Positions 41,831-52,344 of a stretch of DNA of 64,000 nt are shown here, piece after piece. The stretch covers positions 3,424,001 to 3,488,000 of the forward strand of contig CBDDIJ010000003.1 in assembly GCA_965228855.1 (NCBI GenBank), read 5' to 3'. This DNA comes from Candidatus Obscuribacterales bacterium (lineage in GTDB: Bacteria > Cyanobacteriota > Vampirovibrionia > Obscuribacterales > Obscuribacteraceae). The position numbers and the translations under genes were made by a program. The notes beneath the pieces are model-generated. The model searched no databases, was not told the origin of the DNA, and was given only the letters and a program-made list of their open reading frames with translations. Numbering within the stretch: position 1 is the stretch's first letter; each line of letters starts with the position of its first letter.

Positions 41831-43408
41831 CTATTTCGCAACGGAGCGACCATCCATCGCCGTTAACAGGTCTGGACTTTGAAGCAAACGCAAGGGCTGT
41901 TCTTGAATTTCAAGTTGAACAATGTCCTGACCGTCGGAAACGCCGAGTTCCTGAAATTTGCGGGCCGTAACAAGCACTCTTGTCTCCATTGAGCCAACAG
42001 CCTTGTTGTAGGCGTCGACAGACTTGTCGAGTCCTTTGCGAATCTCAGAGAAGTGTCCGGCCATAATACGAATTCGCTCGTATAAAGTCTTTCCGAGCTG
42101 ACTTATTGCCTGGGCATTTTCGGCCAGCTTCTCTTGCTTCCAGCCATAGGCGACGGCGCGGAGTAATCCGATAAGCGTGGTAGGCGTCGCCAAGATGACT
42201 CGTTGCTCCACGCCGACCTCGATTAGCGATGGATCCTGCTCCAGAGCAGCACTAAAGAAGGTTTCACCCGGTAAAAACAGTACGACGAATTCGGGCGAGC
42301 AGCCAAACTGCTCCCAGTACGCCTTACTCGAAAGTTTCGTCAGATGAGTACGAATTTGTCGGGCATGGTCTTTGAGACAGGCGATGCGGGTTTCGTCGTC
42401 GCGAGCCTCGAGCGCATCGAGATAGGCTTGCAATGGCGCTTTGGAATCAACAATTACGGTTTTTTGTCCAGGAAGGCGAACCAACAAATCGGGGCGAATC
42501 ACCGAATCCTCGGTCGTGATTGTCTTCTGCTCATAAAAGTCACAATGTTCGAGCATGCCTGCCATTTCGACAACTCGCTTCAGTTGAATCTCGCCCCAAC
42601 GTCCTCTCACAGTTGGAGCCCGGAGGGCGCGAACTAAATTTTGCGTTTCCTGCTGCAGGTTAGTCTGACCATTCGCCAGTGCACCAATTTGCTCCTTAAG
42701 CCCGGAGTAAGCGTTTATCCGTTCCTTCTCCAGATCCTGTATCTTCGTGTCGACGCTCAACAACGACTCCTTTAATGGCTTGACGAGTTCGTCGATAGAT
42801 TTTTGTCTTAGCTCGAGGTCGGTTTTCGCTCCCTCTTGGAACTTCTCCAGATGAGTCTTAGCCAGGTCTAAAAACGCCTGATTGTTAGACTTTAAAGCCT
42901 GGGAAGAGAGAGCTTGAAATGAATCAGTCAGTTGCTTCTGCGCTTGATCGATAAGCTTCAACTTCTCCTCGGCGGCTTGTCGTTCTTTCTCTCGAGCAGT
43001 TTCCAGAATCGATATTTGTTGTTTTAAAGCAACGACCTCTTGCGAAAACGAAGTTACCTTTTCATCGCGAAGGCGCACGTCCTGCTGGAGTTGATCGATT
43101 TTCGAATTGCGCTCTTCGGACGCAGCAAGCCGCATTTGCAATTGTGATACCAGCGAATTCCTTTCCTGCAATTGTTCGTAGTTGAGTGTATTTTGATTCT
43201 TAAGTTCATCGTACGAGCGCGAGGTTTGCGACTTAAGTTCCTCGATACTTCTATCTCGCTCTTCGAGTCGCGACTTAAGCGTTGCTTGCTCTGTTTTAAA
43301 CGCACTAAGATTACGTTCCAATTCGGCAGCCGACCTGCTACGAAAAATCAGCCAGGCAATCAGCGCTCCAACAGCGATACCGACAATTAAGCATGCAACT
43401 AATTCCAT
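41831..43408 (-). CDS. rmuC: DNA recombination protein RmuC
   Basis: N-terminal TM and coiled coil, [40 protein letters not shown]. Confidence 0.93.
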
Positions 43409-43435
43409 CTTTATTCTTTCACCAATTCGCTAGAG

Positions 43436-46400
43436 CTAAGCTGACATCTGGAATCCGTTTTTCGTCGTGACGGACGACTCGAACTGTCCTCTGCCAGCTT
43501 CAACAATCTGGCAAAAGAAACTAATCAGTTTCATCTGGGTTAAGGAGGTACAGGGCGTCTGTAGAAGGTCCGGACTTCCAACAACAAATGCCAGGGTCTT
43601 CGCTCTGGATATTGCCACATTCAGGCGACTTCTGCTGAACAGAAAATCCAGCCCTCTTGCAGAACCGCTTCCCTCGCTAGCACACATCGATAGTATCACG
43701 ACTGGTGCCTCCTGTCCCTGGAACTTATCTATAGACGCAACGCGCGCACCCGGAATCCGAGAGGCTATCTTTCGGACCTGCATGTTATATGGACTGACTA
43801 TAAGAATGTCTTTCATGGACAATACATTAATTGCTCCCGTCTTATCAGAAACACAGCAACGCAGAAGAGTATTAACCAGTTCTTCGATTGCATCGACCTC
43901 TTCATCGCTGGCCTGGCTGTTGCCACGATGCGGAACCGGACACCAAACGATTCCCGCTCGCTTCTGGAATCCGGAATTCAGCTGACCAGGCGGAATGAGC
44001 ACCTGATTAGAATTCTCTTCGTGCGCGACTAAACGAGAGTCATAGATTGCTGAGGATATAACCTCACAGATATCAGGATGCATTCGGCGGGTGACAGATA
44101 GAAAAATTCCCATGCTATCGGATATGGTGGCACTATCCTGTAGAAGATACTCAAGACAGGATAATCCACTATCTCCAGGATGAGAGCCCTCCGTGGGCTG
44201 CTCGAGCTGCATCTGATCGCCAAGCAACACAAGATTTCCCGTGCTTGGGCTCATTGCGGCTACGTTCGCGAGACAAACCTGTCCGGCTTCATCAACAAAG
44301 AGATAATCAACCATTCGAATAGCAGCATCCGAGCTAAACAACCAGGCGGTACCAGCAATCAAATTAAACGAATCCGGCTCTTCGTCTTTGAAAAATTTTC
44401 CTGATCCGCGTATGCGACGAACACCCGGCATATACGTTTGAGGTCCAGAGTCGGCTCCCGAAGGCGCAATCTTGGCGCCCCTCAGCGGAACGCCCTCTTC
44501 ACGAGCAACTTCGGCCACCTTTTCCAACAAATTGTCTATCGCTTTGTGAGAATTTGAAGTGATTCCGACGCGCTTTCCCTGACGCAACAATTCGACAATA
44601 GTATGGCTTGCAGTGTAAGTTTTGCCAGTTCCGGGCGGTCCCTGAATAGATAAGCAGGTCTCTTGCATACGACTTACAGCACTGACTACGGATTTCACAT
44701 CTCTAGCGTCTGCAATTGCGATCCCAACGGCCCGACCTTTGATGTTAGGTTCTTCCCGAAAGAGGAGGTCAGACAAACACTGCGGAATCCTTTGTCCCTG
44801 AGCCCAGGCGGATACCACCCGAAATATGGAACTCGCTATTATTTTGCTATCTACGAATTCATCCGGGATCAAAGAAATTTCTTCCGGAGGAACTGGTTTG
44901 CTTTTCCCCAGTAAGATCACAACGCGCCCCTTCCGGCGATCGAGAGAGGCTATGCGCGTGCTTTCCGCATTATGCGCGAACAGAACGGAGTCACCTTCTT
45001 TCATCTTTGTGTCTTGACTTGGATCAAACGAATACTCATAGCCGAACGAACGATTTATTTTAACCGGCGGATTTCTTACCCACGTCAGCTTTCCGAGACA
45101 ATCCAGATCGTCGTACAACTCATTGTCGGTCAGACTCATCCTCTCAAACCGACGCCACCACATCGGCTTATATTCACGGCGATGAAATTCAAGCAGACCG
45201 GCAAGCAGCTGTTGAACGCGCTTAGTCTCAAGATCAGCGATTTGCTCAGACGCTTTCATTAAATCAGCGGCAAGTGCGCCTGCAGGCATCAGATCGCGCA
45301 CCACAGGCGATGCCTCGATCTGAGGTCCAGAGAACTCGATACGATTCTCCTTCTGGCGGGCACGAAGCCATACCGCCAGTTGCTGCGTAGAGACACAATC
45401 CAACTCGTTGTAGTCGCGAATCTCTTTTAGAATTGGCGATTCTTGCCAGGTCAGGCCATCCTGGCATTCGATCCATCGCTCGTAGAAAACAACCGAATCA
45501 GTAGCTTTTGCTACAGTGCCACTTCGTTTGCCTCTATAGAGATGTTCTACATACTTAATCGAGTAAGACGGCTCTCCTACGCGCAGCCCCTGACGGACGA
45601 CTTGGAACAGGTCGACGAAAACCCTGTGCCTGAGGAGTTCGTCGACCTCTTCCATCCTCGTTGAATGACGACCCGCTAGTCGTCTAACAGCAGATACTTC
45701 GTAAGCCGCATAGTGATAGATATGCATTCCTGGGTCATGGCGCCAGCGCTCGTAGACCCAGTCTATGAAATTCTCGAAAGCTATCTTTTCTTCAGCTCGA
45801 TCGTGTGCCCACCAATCTTTAAATTCAATTGAATCACCGAGTTCGTAAACCACTCCCCAGAGATATTCCAACCCGCCTGACATATGAGGATATCCTTCCA
45901 TGTCAAAGTAGACGTCATTGAATGAAGGTGGCGGCAGCATTGCGAGCCCCTTGCCCGGAATTACAGGGAGCACTTCAAATGTAGTTTCACCGGCCATCTT
46001 CGAACGATTTTGAGCTCTGGCCTGTTGCTGGAGAGTATCGAACGTCTCTCGCGTCATTTTCGGAATCGATGAGGACTCGGAATTTGCGAGTTGAGTCAGA
46101 GTGTTAATTCCGGCATTCAGTAAGCGGTCGATCTGACTCTGCCGAATATTAGCGACTCGTGAGAGATGGTCTCTGTCTTCCAGAAATTTTTCCGAAACAG
46201 TCTTCCAACGGCTATGGGAACTAACAGTCCAGTCTTCTGGTGGATGGTCTTTTGAAAAACGTCCCTGAAACTCGAGGAATGAGTTCTTGAGGCGGAGATA
46301 GAGGTGATGATATTCGTGAGTACGAAATTCTTTTTGCGCGAAATCACCAAGCACCACTCTAACTGACCCTGGTAGTCGCCCTTGAATGCACTCAAGCATT

Positions 46401-46861
46401 TCTGCATAACAGCAGAGCTGGATAATGAAATGGGGTTTTGCCTTCTTCGAGAGTTTCGTGTCCCAGACTTCGTAGTGGAAATCTCCAAGCTCAGACGCAC
46501 CATCCACTTTGATGAGGAAATCGGAAAAGCCTGCAAACTCATCGGCTTGAAGAAATCCCTGATAGATGACCTCTCGGCCGTCCCGCATAGCTGCAATTGT
46601 TTCCAGTCGAGCAGATTCGCTTTTACTATGAATTTCCGCAATGTCGTAACCTTCTTTCCGTAATTGTGTGAGAAACGCTAACTCATGCGTGTTTCCGTGC
46701 TTGGCGAGAATCTCAAGACTCTCGTCACGCTCATCAGGCTTGACTTCATCCGGGTATTCAACAGAATATCGCTCCATCCAAGAGTCGAACTGTGAGTCCA
46801 TGAATGTAACGAGGTCGGACGGCGAATAAACCAGCGGACCGTCTGCTTTCATCCTGCGCAT
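43436..46861 (-). CDS. TM0106-family RecB-like nuclease fused to RNase H-like domain and SF1 (DNA2/NAM7/UPF1-like) helicase
   Basis: SPSDL, DFL...YEVWDTK...QLCCY nuclease motifs; YFDMEG/YHYAAYE/YNELDC RNase H-like; QGPPGTGKT, VDEAGQ, GDQMQL, FQGQE, RLNVAISRAK. AGGAG RBS. Confidence 0.9.
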   Translation of the reverse strand: MRRMKADGPLVYSPSDLVTFMDSQFDSWMERYSVEYPDEVKPDERDESLEILAKHGNTHELAFLTQLRKEGYDIAEIHSKSESARLETIAAMRDGREVIYQGFLQADEFAGFSDFLIKVDGASELGDFHYEVWDTKLSKKAKPHFIIQLCCYAEMLECIQGRLPGSVRVVLGDFAQKEFRTHEYHHLYLRLKNSFLEFQGRFSKDHPPEDWTVSSHSRWKTVSEKFLEDRDHLSRVANIRQSQIDRLLNAGINTLTQLANSESSSIPKMTRETFDTLQQQARAQNRSKMAGETTFEVLPVIPGKGLAMLPPPSFNDVYFDMEGYPHMSGGLEYLWGVVYELGDSIEFKDWWAHDRAEEKIAFENFIDWVYERWRHDPGMHIYHYAAYEVSAVRRLAGRHSTRMEEVDELLRHRVFVDLFQVVRQGLRVGEPSYSIKYVEHLYRGKRSGTVAKATDSVVFYERWIECQDGLTWQESPILKEIRDYNELDCVSTQQLAVWLRARQKENRIEFSGPQIEASPVVRDLMPAGALAADLMKASEQIADLETKRVQQLLAGLLEFHRREYKPMWWRRFERMSLTDNELYDDLDCLGKLTWVRNPPVKINRSFGYEYSFDPSQDTKMKEGDSVLFAHNAESTRIASLDRRKGRVVILLGKSKPVPPEEISLIPDEFVDSKIIASSIFRVVSAWAQGQRIPQCLSDLLFREEPNIKGRAVGIAIADARDVKSVVSAVSRMQETCLSIQGPPGTGKTYTASHTIVELLRQGKRVGITSNSHKAIDNLLEKVAEVAREEGVPLRGAKIAPSGADSGPQTYMPGVRRIRGSGKFFKDEEPDSFNLIAGTAWLFSSDAAIRMVDYLFVDEAGQVCLANVAAMSPSTGNLVLLGDQMQLEQPTEGSHPGDSGLSCLEYLLQDSATISDSMGIFLSVTRRMHPDICEVISSAIYDSRLVAHEENSNQVLIPPGQLNSGFQKRAGIVWCPVPHRGNSQASDEEVDAIEELVNTLLRCCVSDKTGAINVLSMKDILIVSPYNMQVRKIASRIPGARVASIDKFQGQEAPVVILSMCASEGSGSARGLDFLFSRSRLNVAISRAKTLAFVVGSPDLLQTPCTSLTQMKLISFFCQIVEAGRGQFESSVTTKNGFQMSA

Positions 46862-46889
46862 GACTATGTATCTCCTGCTTACAAATACC

Positions 46890-46921
46890 AGCCTACGAAA
46901 TCAAGCTGCGAAATATCTGCA
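46890..46921 (-). promoter_or_regulatory. Putative WYL-activator site and promoter of the nuclease-helicase/rmuC operon (TCGCAG-N10-TAGGCT)
   Basis: Minus strand reads TCGCAG cttgatttcg TAGGCT, then AGGAG RBS and ATG at 46861. Left part of a palindrome interrupted by the intron. Confidence 0.6.
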
Positions 46922-48960
46922 GTGTCGACACGAGGTCGATTAAATGAATAGATTTAATAATCTCAGAGCACCTCCTTGCTCTGTCTCCACGTAAAAGACT
47001 CAATGAGTTCGCCCGCGTCGCAAGTAAGTGATGAACGCGATCAATAGAAGGGCACGAAAGGTCCGAAACTCTTAGCCACAATAGAGTGAAGAAGGACCGA
47101 GGGGAGACCGGCATGGTCAGGTGTGCACGAAGCACGAACACGAATCATCTTAAGTTCCGTCATTTTCGAAATGGTGAAAGTGGCTGTATGCACCATGCCC
47201 AAAAGGGAAGCGGGTTGGCTGATTGGTTTGCAGAGCAATCAGCAGGGAGGCTACACTCCCGCCGGAATACAGATGGGACCTAAACCGGTCGTTAGTCATT
47301 TAGTCGGAACGTGGTAAACCTCATGGGCTCTTGCTTTTGTTCAAGCGAGCAACCAACGCGTAAGCTGCGGCTCATTGCCTAGGAGGTAACGGATTCTGGA
47401 AAAAGCGAACGGTTCGCTGTAATGGCGGACACAGGGCAATACCCACGCTGAAAGGCGGCTGACTTCCAGAACGTGTCCCGCGAAATTACAATGAGAGGAA
47501 TTCGAACAACCGTGAAAGATGGAACCACACTTGGTATCGGAGCGGATGGAAAGCCTTTAGATTGGAGTCTCATGCCATGGGATTCAATTGACAAGTCTAT
47601 CAGAAAACTGAGACAGCGTATATTTCGTGCCATACGCGAAGGTCGACTGAATCAGGCGCGAAGCCTGATGAAACTGATGCTTCGCAGTTACTTGAACCTG
47701 CTGGATTCTGTGCGCAGAGCTACGCAAAAGAACAAAGGCAAAAAAACCGCTGGAGTCGACGGCGTAACAGCTCTAACATCGAAAGCAAGATGGAAGTTGA
47801 CCAGACAGATGGTAATGCAGACACCATGGACGGTGAAACCGACCAGACGTATTTACATACCGAAGTCAGGGAAACCCGGACAAAAACGTCCGTTATCAAT
47901 TCCCGCCCTGCGAGATCGGGTAGCACAGGCGATGATGAAGAACGCACTGGAACCCTGCTGGGAAGCTCGATTTGAGTCAACCAGCTACGGTTTTCGCCCT
48001 GGAAGAAGTCTCCACGATGCCGTTAGGCATTGCTGGGAATTATTCAAGGCGAATACGAAACGTCCGTGGATTTTAGACGCGGATATCCGTAGCGCGTTCG
48101 ACAAAATCTCACATGAACATATCCTACAAGAGCTCGGACCGGTTCCGGGACGAGATCTAATTAGGCAATGGCTCAAGGCAGGTTACATGGAGGCGGAAGT
48201 CTTTCACACCACGGACAGTGGCACACCTCAAGGAGGCATCATATCCCCGTTGCTTTTGAACATCGCCCTGCACGGCATGCAAAAAGCGCTGGGGAGCGCG
48301 TACGGATATGTCCGATACTCAGATGACCTCATTGTATGTGCACGAACCCGAGATGAGATCGAAGCTGCTAAAACGCGTATCCAAGAGTGGCTGAAGCCGC
48401 GCGGATTGGAATTGCACCCAGAGAAGACAAGAATTGTGCACATTGAGCAAGCACAAGCAAGCGACAGCGGAAGAGGTTATACGATACCTCAACCCCAAAC
48501 TTCGAGGATGGGCGAACCACTATCGACGAGCAGTAAGCAAAGAAGTCTTCGCGTACGTGTCTCACCAAGTTTGGCAGATGCTCTGGAGATGGTGCCTTAG
48601 AAGGCATCGGAAAAGAGCAAATACTGGGTGCGTAACAAATACTTTGGCTCTCCGAAAACGAAGAGCTGGAGATTTCAAGCGCACACCGATGACGGCGCCC
48701 TTTATCTTTATGACGTTAGCTCGACAGGAATCGAGCGACACATTAAGGTGCGAGGCGACGCCAGCCCGGACATTCCAGATCTGCGAGACTACTGGCATGC
48801 ACGTATCGAAGAATGTCGAACGTATTACCGCTCGCCGAAACAAGTAACAGTAAAAGCCCTGCTAAACGCTGGGTTGGATGCGCGAGCCGAATGATGGGAA
48901 AACTATCACGTTCGGTTCTAAGAGGGGCTGGGTGCGGTGACGCACCCATGCCTACTCGAC
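46922..48960 (+). mobile_element. Group II intron, class CL / subgroup IIB, degenerate
   Basis: 5' end GTGTCGACACG. Domain I closed by GATTAAATGA (46938-47) pairing with TCATTTAGTC (47296-305). EBS1 TGCAGA (47229-34) in the loop of an 8-bp stem pairs with IBS1 TCTGCA (46916-21). DII/DIII-type GGAACGTGGTAA...GAAAAAGCGAA. DV GAGCCGAATGATGGGAAAACTATCACGTTCGGTTC (48884-918) and DVI ending CCTACTCGAC. Confidence 0.92.
47473..48894 (+). pseudogene. ltrA: Group II intron reverse transcriptase/maturase, disrupted
   Basis: RT0-6 motifs (TAGVDG, RPLSIP, SYGFRPGRS, DADIRSAFDKISH, GTPQGGIISPLL, YSDD, HPEKT). RT7 is missing. Domain X (LNPKLRGWANHY) continues in another frame from ~48443 and switches frame again at ~48609. 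No HNH endonuclease domain. Confidence 0.85.
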
Positions 48961-49033
48961 GTCGTGCGAACGAAAGATTAAAACTGCGTTTAATGACGGT
49001 GTAACTAGCTCCCGATCATGTAGTTTAAGGACC

Positions 49034-50005
49034 ATGAGTACCAAACTAGAGCGAGTTCTGGCAATTGACGCGGAAATCTGTCGTGGCGGATTTCCCGGAG
49101 TTCAGCACCTGTGCCAGAAATTTGAGATTTCCGAGCGAACACTCCACGACGACATTCGCTACCTGAAAGACCGCCTGGCCAGAGAAATAGTTTTCGACCA
49201 CACAAAAGGCGGATACTTCAACAGCACTCCAGATAAGCGTTTGCCGTCCTTTGAATTGTCCAGCGGTGAAATCTTTGCCCTGACACTTGGAAAGGAGATG
49301 CTATCTATATATACAGGTACATCCTTTGAGGCCACTCTTCGCTCCGCACTGGAAAAAATTTCTGAGCGCCTGCCGGAAAAGGTCAATGTCGACCCGGAAG
49401 AAATTAAATCGGTAATCCGATTTCGAGCCAGCGCAATCGTTCCCTTGAGCGCGAAGCTGTTTAGTGAAATGAATAAGGCATGCGATCTGGAGCAACAGAT
49501 CGACTTGACTTATTTTGCGGCAAGCAAAGGCGAAACCACCTCGCGCATAATTAATCCTTACTGCGTGTTGCACGACCGCGGCACCTGGTATGTGGTGGCA
49601 TACTGCAATTCGCGTAAAGCGCTTCGCATGTTTGCGCTGCATCGTATTAAGGACTACAAGATTCTCGACACAAACTTCGAGCCAATGCCGACTGAGGAAC
49701 TCACAGCATGGATTGATGCGGCATTCCAGATCGAGCATGGCGAGCGTACCTACCAGGTGATCATCAAGTTCGCTGCGCACTCGGCAAGATATATTAGAGA
49801 ACGGTCCTGGCATCCGCAGCAAGAGCTTGAGGATTTTGAAGACGGCAGTTGCAAGTTGTCTTTCCCAGCGGCAAGCCTGGACGAAGTTTTTCGCTGGCTG
49901 GCGCCATATGGTTCCGACGCTATTGTGATGGAGCCGCCGGAACTTCGGAAGCTGGTGATCGATGCGGCTAAGGAAACGCTCGAACAATACAACGTCTCCG
50001 TTTAA
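49034..50005 (+). CDS. HTH-WYL-WCX transcriptional regulator (PafB/PafC/DriD-like)
   Basis: N-terminal wHTH (FEISERTLHDDIRYL), WYL motif (INPY...WYVVAYC...RMFALHRI), WCX (WHPQQ...WLAPYGSDAIVMEPPELR). Confidence 0.92.
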   Translation: MSTKLERVLAIDAEICRGGFPGVQHLCQKFEISERTLHDDIRYLKDRLAREIVFDHTKGGYFNSTPDKRLPSFELSSGEIFALTLGKEMLSIYTGTSFEATLRSALEKISERLPEKVNVDPEEIKSVIRFRASAIVPLSAKLFSEMNKACDLEQQIDLTYFAASKGETTSRIINPYCVLHDRGTWYVVAYCNSRKALRMFALHRIKDYKILDTNFEPMPTEELTAWIDAAFQIEHGERTYQVIIKFAAHSARYIRERSWHPQQELEDFEDGSCKLSFPAASLDEVFRWLAPYGSDAIVMEPPELRKLVIDAAKETLEQYNVSV

Positions 50006-50067
50006 ACCATTATATTGATGCGGTTGACATCAACTATTTAGCAGAAAAAACTTTTTCGAACGATTTT

Positions 50068-50105
50068 CACGACTGCGAATATTTCGCAGTCGTGTTTTGT
50101 AAGCT
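50068..50105 (+). promoter_or_regulatory. Perfect 12-bp palindrome plus putative -10 element (putative WYL operator/promoter)
   Basis: CACGACTGCGAA-TAT-TTCGCAGTCGTG, with TCGCAG-N10-TAAGCT pointing to the small ORF at 50206. Confidence 0.6.
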
Positions 50106-50205
50106 GTTTATACAAGGTCGGAAATGCACTGAAGGATTGCAAGGACGGTGGATTGCTGACTGAGACCTGAAGACCGTTGCTGATGATAGAAAGGGATTGG
50201 GACCG

Positions 50206-50454
50206 ATGTTTCTAACGCCAGAGCAATTGCAACTAATACAAGATGCACTCGAATATTCGTGTACTGCTTTGTCGGACGAATTCGAGCAGAACAAACACAG
50301 CCGTGAAGCTGACGAAATTCAGCGCTCCGTTTTGGTATACGGCAAACTGCGAAAGTACAACAAGCTTTTAAACGACATTCGAAAGAGCCTGCCTGCACCC
50401 CCTACGATTCGGGAGAACAATGTTCTTGTTCTCGCCGCTAGCAGAGGGAGGTAG
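50206..50454 (+). CDS. Small helical hypothetical protein
   Basis: 82 aa from ATG 50206 (ORF track starts 50197). Purine-rich upstream region. Confidence 0.55.
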   Translation: MFLTPEQLQLIQDALEYSCTALSDEFEQNKHSREADEIQRSVLVYGKLRKYNKLLNDIRKSLPAPPTIRENNVLVLAASRGR

Positions 50455-50512
50455 TATCGACTAATCTCAACCACGCAATGACAGTCTAATTATCACGAAT
50501 CCGAGAAGTGTT

Positions 50513-50824
50513 ATGAGCCTTCCCGGATTCGTCTTTTTGCATGGAGCATGGCTTATAAAAAAGACTTTTCCACTCGCCCTTCCTAAAAATCGCCTCTCGA
50601 ATATAGAACAAGCATGTCAAAAACTTCTAACTAGAATGGACGCTCCCATGACAGCTCTTGCAAACACTCTCGAACGCATCGCTCTTAATCTAGAGCAGGA
50701 GCAAGTGTTTACTGAAATCATCTTCGATGAGTATGAGTATCTTCTGGAACTTGCAAACGATGTTTACATCGCATCGCTGGAAACCCATCTGGAAACAATG
50801 GAAAACATTCGCCCGATCCACTAG
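50513..50824 (+). CDS. Small acidic hypothetical protein
   Basis: ORF ends adjacent to the convergent gene. Start could be ATG 50636 or 50648. Confidence 0.4.
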   Translation: MSLPGFVFLHGAWLIKKTFPLALPKNRLSNIEQACQKLLTRMDAPMTALANTLERIALNLEQEQVFTEIIFDEYEYLLELANDVYIASLETHLETMENIRPIH

Positions 50825-51418
50825 TTACTGGTTTAAAAAGAAATCGCCTGTTACAGGATCGCGCGTCAAGTTTTCCCAGGCGGCCACCTCATGAAAGCGA
50901 ATTGGAATTGGCCCCGTCAAGCCTGGTATGCGGATATTCGTCCACGAGATTGAAACCAGGGGATGAATAGCGACATCGACTTTTAAATCGAGAAGATAAA
51001 CACATGGGCTATCCTTGCCTTCGGGCAAAACCCTCGCAGGAATCGTTTTCGGTGCGCGAAAAATTTCAATCTGCTTCGTTTTGGTCGATTCGATTGTCAT
51101 CGACAGTTCGGTTTCATTCACATCGATGCCGCCAATCGCATTCAGTTGTTGCCACTTAGAAGACTCGGATGTGACACTAGCCAGGGCTTCACTGAAAGAC
51201 TCGCTTCGGGCCAGTCTTCTCACTTCATTGGTCACGATCGATTTGCCCATCCCGTAGCGAACTGGAATGATCGCCATATTGAGAAGAGGTAGTACGACAC
51301 AACCAAACAGAATAAACAGTGCGGCACCAAATTCGGTGACTTGTGCCGCACCATATTCAGTTCTGCGGAATCGGGATCGTTTCACTATACCACTCGTTTT
51401 ACACCACCACTGTTTCAT
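50825..51418 (-). CDS. TadE-like pseudopilin
   Basis: Basic leader followed by GAAQVTEFGAALFILFG prepilin-like motif. Overlaps the upstream gene by 4 bp. Confidence 0.6.
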   Translation of the reverse strand: MKQWWCKTSGIVKRSRFRRTEYGAAQVTEFGAALFILFGCVVLPLLNMAIIPVRYGMGKSIVTNEVRRLARSESFSEALASVTSESSKWQQLNAIGGIDVNETELSMTIESTKTKQIEIFRAPKTIPARVLPEGKDSPCVYLLDLKVDVAIHPLVSISWTNIRIPGLTGPIPIRFHEVAAWENLTRDPVTGDFFLNQ

Positions 51419-52344
51419 TTAGCTGGAGGCAGAGCGCCGTTCGTACAGGCGGTACTCAGGCTCCTGGTTCCCGTCTCGACACCATTGACCACCTTGCTCT
51501 TCATTTTGACGGACATTAGCACTTGAACGCACGATGGCATTAACATGCTACTACCAATGGCATCATTTCCATTTTCCAGAATCGACACCGATGGTTTGAA
51601 ATGTTTTTCCGACACTAATCGCATAGGGGCAGCGCTTTCATTCACAGCCATAGGCAACGGAGACAACAGAAAGTCCAGGTCGTCGTCCGGAGCAGGCAAC
51701 TTTAACGACTTCCCTGCGACATAGAAATCGAAATCTTTGCCTCGTTTCAAGAATGAATGAGCCTGATCGTGTGCAATAAGTTCCGGCACTACATGCGGTG
51801 CTTGAACATTTGACTCCATGTTGTCCAAACTGCCTAGCTTGAAATCGAGAATCACGGGCTTATCAACGGCAGCATCAAACAACTCCACCTCACGACCAAG
51901 CGACGTTGTTTTCCCCTTCACTAGCTTTCGCATATCGGTGACAGTAGCGTTTACCAGCCGTTGCCGTTCATCTCCTACAATACGCGCGCCCTCTCGAGTT
52001 TGCTCCACATACTGCGCCGCCAGCTTCTCGTAGTCTCTAAAATGCGGGTTATTTAGGGTGACGTCATGCATGCGTCGCGCGGTAAAAACAAGCTCACGAG
52101 AGTCGCCTATCAAATTGTTGAGCCGCCCTACGTTATCATTCTCATTCAACTTTTGGGCAGCAATGAGTGCAACCTTCTCTCCTGAATCCTGCAACCGTTG
52201 ATTCGAAAAGAAGACAAGCTGAAACCAAAATGCAATTCCGGTTAGCACGAGAATCAGGCAGCCGATGGCTACGCACAAAAACAGCATGTTACCGCGCTCT
52301 TGTCGCAACTTTTCTCCAATCGCTATCTTTCTACTTTGACCCAA
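51415..52344 (-). CDS. TadG/Flp-pilus-assembly-like pseudopilin
   Basis: RQERG|NMLFLCVAIGCLILVL class III-like leader, then RLQDSGEKVALIAA helix. Confidence 0.55.
   Translation of the reverse strand: MGQSRKIAIGEKLRQERGNMLFLCVAIGCLILVLTGIAFWFQLVFFSNQRLQDSGEKVALIAAQKLNENDNVGRLNNLIGDSRELVFTARRMHDVTLNNPHFRDYEKLAAQYVEQTREGARIVGDERQRLVNATVTDMRKLVKGKTTSLGREVELFDAAVDKPVILDFKLGSLDNMESNVQAPHVVPELIAHDQAHSFLKRGKDFDFYVAGKSLKLPAPDDDLDFLLSPLPMAVNESAAPMRLVSEKHFKPSVSILENGNDAIGSSMLMPSCVQVLMSVKMKSKVVNGVETGTRSLSTACTNGALPPAK

Follow-up and report, generated by a model that had tools for sequence, protein, structure and literature searches.

A probable WYL-activated defence regulon with a new operator motif in Obscuribacterales

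Introduction

Among the described regulators of the WYL-domain family, DriD of Caulobacter crescentus and DdaA of Moraxellaceae/Acinetobacter offer the closest precedents for the system reported here. In the DriD papers, the protein binds a site, ATACGAC-N7-GTCGTAT, that covers the -35 position and keeps a set distance from the -10 box, recruits RNA polymerase via contacts with the beta subunit and the alpha C-terminal domain, and activates its divergent neighbour, not its own gene (PMC13004042); R37 reads G2 and C14, and R41 reads the G opposite C4 (PMC10853764). By our own reading of the published methods, the DriD promoter oligonucleotides carry a 15-bp core, 11 nt and a -10-like hexamer (PMC13004042). 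DdaA, according to two reports, activates CRISPR-cas and restriction-modification (R-M) genes, and also recA, ssb and uvrA (PMC12392091, PMC13010146). Here, we analyse a 64,000-nt stretch (the window) of the genome of a Candidatus Obscuribacterales bacterium (assembly GCA_965228855.1, contig CBDDIJ010000003.1, positions 3,424,001 to 3,488,000), in which the gene of a regulator with winged helix-turn-helix (wHTH)-WYL-WCX architecture is flanked by two copies of one palindrome. Database records whose WYL proteins are 84-100% identical to this one bear the names Candidatus Obscuribacterales or Obscuribacter, in agreement with this origin. We propose that the palindromes mark a real regulon, probably that of a DriD/DdaA-type activator with a new motif.

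A preliminary description of the locus had called such a regulon undescribed. This holds for the motif and the lineage in the literature searched, but not for the kind of system, as this type of switch is already known in other bacteria. Listings and abstract openings on WYL regulation in Melainabacteria, Obscuribacterales or Vampirovibrionia contained no published work on this system, nothing relevant was found in the TM0106 literature, and weak keyword searches found neither a WYL-linked small RNA nor an intron in an operator in print. The regulon would extend DriD/DdaA-type activation to a non-photosynthetic cyanobacterial lineage, and its operator is a guide to uncharacterised defence candidates, namely the TM0106 helicase-nuclease, an 82-aa protein and a hairpin RNA. 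Most of the novelty lies in the hairpin RNA and in an intron that appears to home into the operator.

The locus and its two operator copies

Along the locus, rmuC and a TM0106-family gene on the minus strand are followed by a group II intron, the WYL gene (323 aa, 49034-50005) and two small open reading frames (ORFs) on the plus strand. Protein families were assigned with Pfam/NCBIfam profiles; the predicted activator has Pfam WYL and WCX matches and a weak match to HTH_11, below cut-off. The conserved unit of the palindrome is a 17-bp core, STGCR-N7-YGCAS, and the full pattern adds TAnnnT 10 nt later. Copy 2 (50068-50094, plus strand; core 50073-50089) has, on re-checking, the perfect 12-bp arms around TAT ascribed to it, and the -10-like hexamer TAAGCT (50100-50105, plus strand) stands exactly 10 nt from its TCGCAG. 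Copy 1 (core CTGCAGATATTTCGCAG, 46906-46922, minus strand) is partnered by TAGGCT (46890-46895, read 46895-46890 on the minus strand), likewise exactly 10 nt from TCGCAG and facing the TM0106 gene.

Copy 1 had been thought visible only once the intron is removed. The 20/22 identity of the joined form to the reverse complement of copy 2 stands, but this 22-mer comparison included the outer arms. Even with the intron present, the 17-bp core is complete, since the G that opens the intron stands in for the lost G, and only the outer, non-conserved arm is displaced. The directional palindrome occurs in the window twice exactly and once with one mismatch, against 0.08 matches expected; the third match lies within a coding region and has no -10.

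Conservation of the operator

The pattern was scanned in 61 related genomes, with the reversed pattern as control. The core followed by N10 and TAnnnT gave 101 matches, compared with 7 for the control. Ninety-four of these come from the 23 genomes in which a WYL ortholog was found (E<1e-40), 21 of which are positive, and 7 of the 38 genomes lacking an ortholog at this threshold have one match each. The directional palindrome alone, with no -10 required, gave 83 sites against 1 in the control. Exact TAnnnT follows at 10 nt on the same side in 54 of the 83, where about 1 in 64 would be expected by chance, and any other TAnnnT offset is found at no more than 2 of 75 sites, a set that was partly pre-selected. 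In this genome (G000), a weight matrix trained without this species scored eight intergenic sites above the best reversed-genome score (16-44 versus 14.8 bits).

Conservation beside the WYL gene, on which the earlier proposal had been staked, is likewise present: at 22 ortholog loci besides this one, with up to one mismatch allowed in the core, the core lies upstream of the WYL gene at 19. At 13 of these 19, TAnnnT stands exactly 10 nt away and faces the divergent neighbour, and at four more, those with more distant orthologs, it points towards the WYL gene. Eleven loci, this one among them, have a further, equally spaced copy downstream of the WYL gene and ahead of the small ORF. The palindromes are real and conserved. 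Copy 2 also passes a terminator scan, and a loop of the intron resembling exon-binding site 1 (EBS1) matches copy 1, as would suit a copy 2 that is only the terminator of the WYL gene and a copy 1 that is only an intron target site. However, the perfect 12-bp arms of copy 2 are not kept in relatives, whereas the core, the spacing and the -10 are, and the motif stands at dozens of promoters without introns. We find this explanation scarcely credible; a dual role for copy 2, as operator and also as terminator, is possible in this species.

Alternatively, the protein that occupies the palindrome could be LexA or some unlinked regulator, with the WYL gene merely a neighbour. The Escherichia coli SOS box is CTGT-N8-ACAG, to which the palindrome bears a likeness, and LexA was found in 23 of the 24 other family genomes searched. 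However, box counts follow the WYL ortholog and not LexA, and the regions upstream of recA and lexA contain no match to the WYL box. SOS-type genes and lexA are preceded by a different palindrome, CATA[C/T]-N4-[A/G]TATG, which has six exact intergenic matches in this genome. Five of these adjoin Ku-, ssb-, dnaE2-, imuA- and xseA-like genes (named by eye), and a one-mismatch match precedes lexA, at a site kept in 4 of 4 relatives read; no match was found near the start of recA in this genome. The second palindrome, which stands before SOS-type genes at C2:2361157, C3:1935723, C3:2158136, C3:2168665, C5:1386569 and C5:843433 in this genome, is likely to be the LexA box of this lineage, in which case LexA would keep the repair genes while the WYL protein takes the defence genes. 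Control of the WYL-type box by a factor other than the WYL protein seems very unlikely.

A putative DriD-like activator

We consider with good confidence, by comparison with described systems, that the palindrome is the operator of the adjacent WYL protein and that this protein is a DriD-like activator of promoters with a -10 box only. The best match to TTGACA reached at most 3 of 6 positions at 97 of 97 sites, a result that is partly forced, as the interval searched sits inside the palindrome. The WYL protein, a predicted homodimer, would bind single-stranded DNA (ssDNA) from damage or from invading DNA, dock on the palindrome at the usual -35 position and recruit the housekeeping RNA polymerase to these promoters. 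Promoter geometry and analogy form the basis for proposing activation, and DriD and DdaA serve as the models for the dimer, its ssDNA ligand and its mode of action.

In the DriD reports (PMC13004042, PMC10853764, PMC9186387), many features are shared with the present system: the wHTH-WYL-WCX architecture, here with a possible helical linker, a 4-N7-4 pseudo-palindrome with an A/T-rich centre and conserved G2/C14, a 15-bp core 11 nt before the -10 (here TGCG-N7-CGCA plus 11 nt), a site in a divergent promoter facing the neighbour, and nuclease and small-protein targets. The DriD core is CGAC-N7-GTCG and the core here TGCR-N7-YGCA, so the protein is not a DriD ortholog in the strict sense; identity is about 18%, and the regulon differs in that targets here are mostly defence genes and do not include recA. 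R37/T38 of DriD match R35/T36 here, and R41 corresponds to D39 (by eye). R35-T36 is invariant in the aligned orthologs and residue 39 is mostly acidic; in the motif, position 4 is a purine, and G2 and C14 are kept. Within the WYL domain, Y160, R171, W185, Y186, R198 and R204 are invariant and R194 nearly so among 12 aligned orthologs, with WY185-186, R194, R198 and R204 kept in 11-12 of the 12; we infer that these aromatic and arginine residues are the counterparts of the DriD/PafBC ligand residues. DriD/DdaA-type activators have a three-helix bundle between the wHTH and WYL domains; here, helices are tentatively predicted in that interval at residues 77-93, 99-111 and 121-127, with a predicted local distance difference test score (pLDDT) near or below 50.

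The locus has a single wHTH-WYL-WCX gene, as in DriD/DdaA-type homodimeric activators. PafBC had been the model in the preliminary description. In the mycobacterial PafBC motif a half-site stands 10 nt before TAnnnT, and this hexamer-N10-TAnnnT geometry is shared; however, PafBC derives from a gene pair or a fusion, and the single gene here, together with a palindrome that is complete and covers the -35 position, makes DriD/DdaA the closer precedent, although some relatives have tandem WYL/HTH genes. PafBC itself is described (PMC13004042) as a heterodimer that needs RNA polymerase in order to bind, on a site that is not palindromic. DdaA is likewise a WYL activator, with the 15-bp palindrome CGWCA-N5-TGWCG, and is reported to replace SOS (PMC12392091, PMC13010146), whereas the present lineage retains LexA, with a box of its own, and has no core repair genes of the recA/ssb/uvrA type in its WYL regulon. 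SiwR is a homodimer that acts on its divergent neighbour via a palindrome (PMC10693628), as is predicted here. On comparative grounds, the earlier suggestion of a homodimeric WYL activator with its own motif, driving the helicase-nuclease gene and a small ORF, is supported.

Several points weigh against this reading. Twenty-nine of the 83 palindromes have no exact -10, tandem boxes among them, and the 20 exceptions that were read comprised some one-base -10 variants such as AATAAT, some tandem boxes and some chance-like sites. G019 and G039, genomes with more distant orthologs, have no exact match to the core, N10 and TAnnnT; 22 of the 94 sites in ortholog-bearing genomes have no assigned target; and some genomes have paralogous WYL/HTH genes that may use this box too, so that not all targets are assignable to one protein. 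The genomes are also kin and not independent, and the counts overstate significance. For the model of the WYL protein, Foldseek ranks DriD first (E 9e-16), PafBC next and then BrxR/CapW (E about 1e-11), but VIA-align places DriD level with two repressors, BrxR and CapW (Z 13-15), and sequence profiles rank PafBC slightly first; therefore, the protein alone does not show activation.

The VIA-align tie would also suit a repressor of the BrxR/CapW type, one that occupies the palindrome until ssDNA releases it. Such a repressor would be in keeping with targets drawn largely from defence systems, the kind of system under BrxR and CapW repression (PMC13010146), and with a -10 that faces the WYL gene at four of the more distant ortholog loci. 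However, there would be little basal promoter to repress, because 97 of 97 sites gave no -35; the fixed spacing equals that of DriD; and Foldseek favours DriD by about 4 orders of E-value. BrxR and CapW belong to the same domain family and are linked to defence, but they are local repressors whose operators overlap the full promoter of a neighbouring defence operon, in contrast to the genome-wide -35-less promoters here. Repression is in our view unlikely.

At loci L076, L078, L092, L101 and L180, full-length WYL genes stand in tandem with shorter HTH-WYL paralogs, every one of them behind a separate box; a heterodimer or a cascade is possible there.

Predicted targets

The 94 sites in ortholog-bearing genomes were assigned to targets by reading the downstream genes. 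The most frequent are the hairpin RNA (13), TM0106 genes (12), small ORFs (10) and WYL/HTH genes (8), followed by R-M or methylase genes (6), cas operons (5) and IS200/IS605-like ends (4). Two sites each precede AbiE, AddAB-like, SbcCD-like (first gene by eye) and rmuC genes, and one each Wadjet, AIPR, DruF-like, BrxD-like, hicAB-like and SNase/HNH genes. The predicted regulon is wider than the locus and would take in TM0106, the small ORF, R-M, CRISPR-cas, Wadjet, AbiE and the hairpin RNA candidate. As part of the overall reading, we think it quite probable that across the family it forms a defence and DNA-processing arm parallel to LexA/SOS.

At the locus, the predicted target of copy 1 is the TM0106-family gene (1141 aa, 43436-46861, minus strand), which encodes a RecB-like nuclease, RNase_H_2 and superfamily 1 helicase protein (TIGR03491, AAA_11/12) and is divergent from the WYL gene at 10 of the 22 ortholog loci (read from N-terminal sequence). 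It is followed by rmuC (525 aa, 41831-43408, minus strand; RmuC family, PF02646), with which it is likely co-transcribed here, the gap being 27 bp when re-measured. The nuclease-helicase and rmuC operon put forward earlier stands for this arrangement, but the pairing is not general among the loci examined: rmuC follows the TM0106 gene in L121, not in L122 or L123, and only in this species. In two other genera (G013, G016), rmuC stands independently behind a box.

Small ORFs had also been named as targets. This holds for the ORF at 50206-50454 (plus strand), which is conserved behind the box; its predicted 82-aa product has 20 small relatives at E<=0.001 and no Pfam, PDB or convincing Atlas match. 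The ORF given as 50513-50824 is probably outside the regulon. Its start at 50513 is probably too early, and 50648 is likelier, as homologs start at that Met (L003, L005); this gives a 58-aa acidic ORF (50648-50824, plus strand), of which no homolog was found in L007, L008 or L012.

Further predicted targets in this genome lie at C3:31019 (a type II R-M locus), C3:1744037 (a second Dam-like methylase), C5:1379029 (a hicAB-like pair whose hicA is broken), C2:1316685 (a 173-aa CxC/CxxC protein) and C5:206073 (an uncharacterised ORF cluster). By eye, the hicAB-like region (C5:1378274-1378900), which follows a WYL box, contains a hicA-like sequence, apparently frameshifted, and after it a hicB-like ORF. 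The CxC/CxxC protein is conserved at 173-186 aa and has no Pfam family (C2:1316036-1316746; L156, L160, L161, L163, L165), and its genes follow one WYL box or tandem boxes, with -10 variants of the AATAAT type. At L020, in the neighbouring family, the WYL ortholog and a Cas9-like gene (PF21069) are arranged divergently, and a box with one mismatch lies between the two.

A hairpin RNA candidate

Twelve box promoters without a sense ORF share one element, which consists in order of GGCTACAG, a long GC hairpin, CGCTG-AGCC, GTRYTGG and an A/T tail. A covariance model gave 24 matches in 12 of 107 genomes of the order, and removal of one coding match (G026) left 23 copies of a core of ~70 nt (L124-L128, L130-L135, L145-L153, L175 and L176), behind WYL-box, LexA-like or plain promoters. 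Nineteen of the 23 lie behind the box, N10 and TAnnnT (the box being matched with up to two mismatches), and their leaders measure 23-152 nt; among the 10 copies found by the RNA model alone, 6 have the box. One copy is preceded by a TTGACA/TATAAA promoter whose spacer holds a LexA-like box, two come from genomes that have no WYL ortholog and show plain sigma-70-type promoters, and one abuts an intron remnant.

Two-sided changes were found at 12 of 20 pairs, above shuffled and slid controls, in an alignment that was fitted to this structure. We infer that the element is transcribed; alternatively, it may be a DNA element, not an RNA, that spreads together with its promoter. No Rfam match over a copy was found at E<=1 (12 loci) and no tRNA match (14 loci). 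The model had no match in this genome at E<0.26 and none in G007, and in 151 genomes of the phylum it gave 3 matches in 2 genomes, one coding and two on one terminator-like hairpin. The pattern was not found in viral-contig scans. Pairing of the leader with the 5' arm of the RNA beat at least 190 of 200 shuffles in 10 of the 23 copies only, and a conformational switch of leader and RNA is a lead only. HDV-like, hammerhead, twister and pistol ribozymes, signal recognition particle RNA and Y RNA were compared by eye with the element on their consensus features, and did not fit.

The group II intron and mobile elements

The group II intron (46922-48960, plus strand) is inserted at the operator edge, between TCTGCA and G, and Rfam Intron_gpII matches its 3' end. 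The intron-less site is present in G007, and the joint of 46921 to 48961 was seen in X1, a run of metagenome contigs. Compared with the X1 copy, the intron in the window is short of about 113+1 bases; its reverse transcriptase frame is broken, and it is single-copy in this genome. A hairpin loop, TGCAGA (47229-47234, plus strand), is complementary to the six bases of the operator that precede the insertion point (46916-46921) and, by analogy with other group II introns, would act as EBS1. A remnant lies at the same site in G003, where a second remnant has an operator-like 3' flank (intron-related places include L194 and L177:7950-8310). A single X1 contig runs from the intron 3' end into sequence like that flanking the C2:1316730 box, where TCTGCA occurs too. 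Operator-like 3' flanks were not seen for related introns of G004 and of five other genera, and a metagenome scan for operator-plus-intron junctions gave only 2 chance matches in coding regions. It is reasonable to suggest, from thin sampling, that the group II intron homes into WYL operators.

In the intron-less allele, a conserved A/T tract, ATTAAA (48977-48982, plus strand; TTTAAT on the target strand), lies 15 nt upstream of the operator and may be UP-element-like. The 5' end of the intron brings a similar ATTAAA-type tract (46939-46944), within 1 nt of the place of the displaced native tract.

In G005, four copies of a left end (TTAC and then a hairpin), which we take to be IS200/IS605-like, contain the WYL operator and -10 (L181:5600-5904, L182, L183, L184); the contigs end just downstream. 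Five operator-promoter matches in viral contigs were treated as chance, with no WYL gene in the flanks read.

A joint reading of these elements, which we put forward tentatively and hold slightly more doubtful than even, is that an ssDNA-sensing WYL activator runs an anti-invader regulon whose most frequent target is an undescribed multi-copy hairpin RNA, damage-inducible via WYL in 19 of 23 copies and via LexA in one more. The intron would home into the operator while sparing the promoter core, and the IS200/IS605-like left end would carry the operator-promoter and tie its own expression to ssDNA.

Minor features of the locus

The hexamer TAGTTT (49021-49026, plus strand), 7 nt before the WYL ATG, is a candidate -10 of the WYL gene's own promoter and was found in 7 of the 12 sequences compared. 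Beyond the small ORFs, two minus-strand ORFs (50825-52344) have pilin/TadE-like N-termini by eye, with no Pfam match. The pair recurs downstream of the WYL locus within the genus, which is probably mere synteny.

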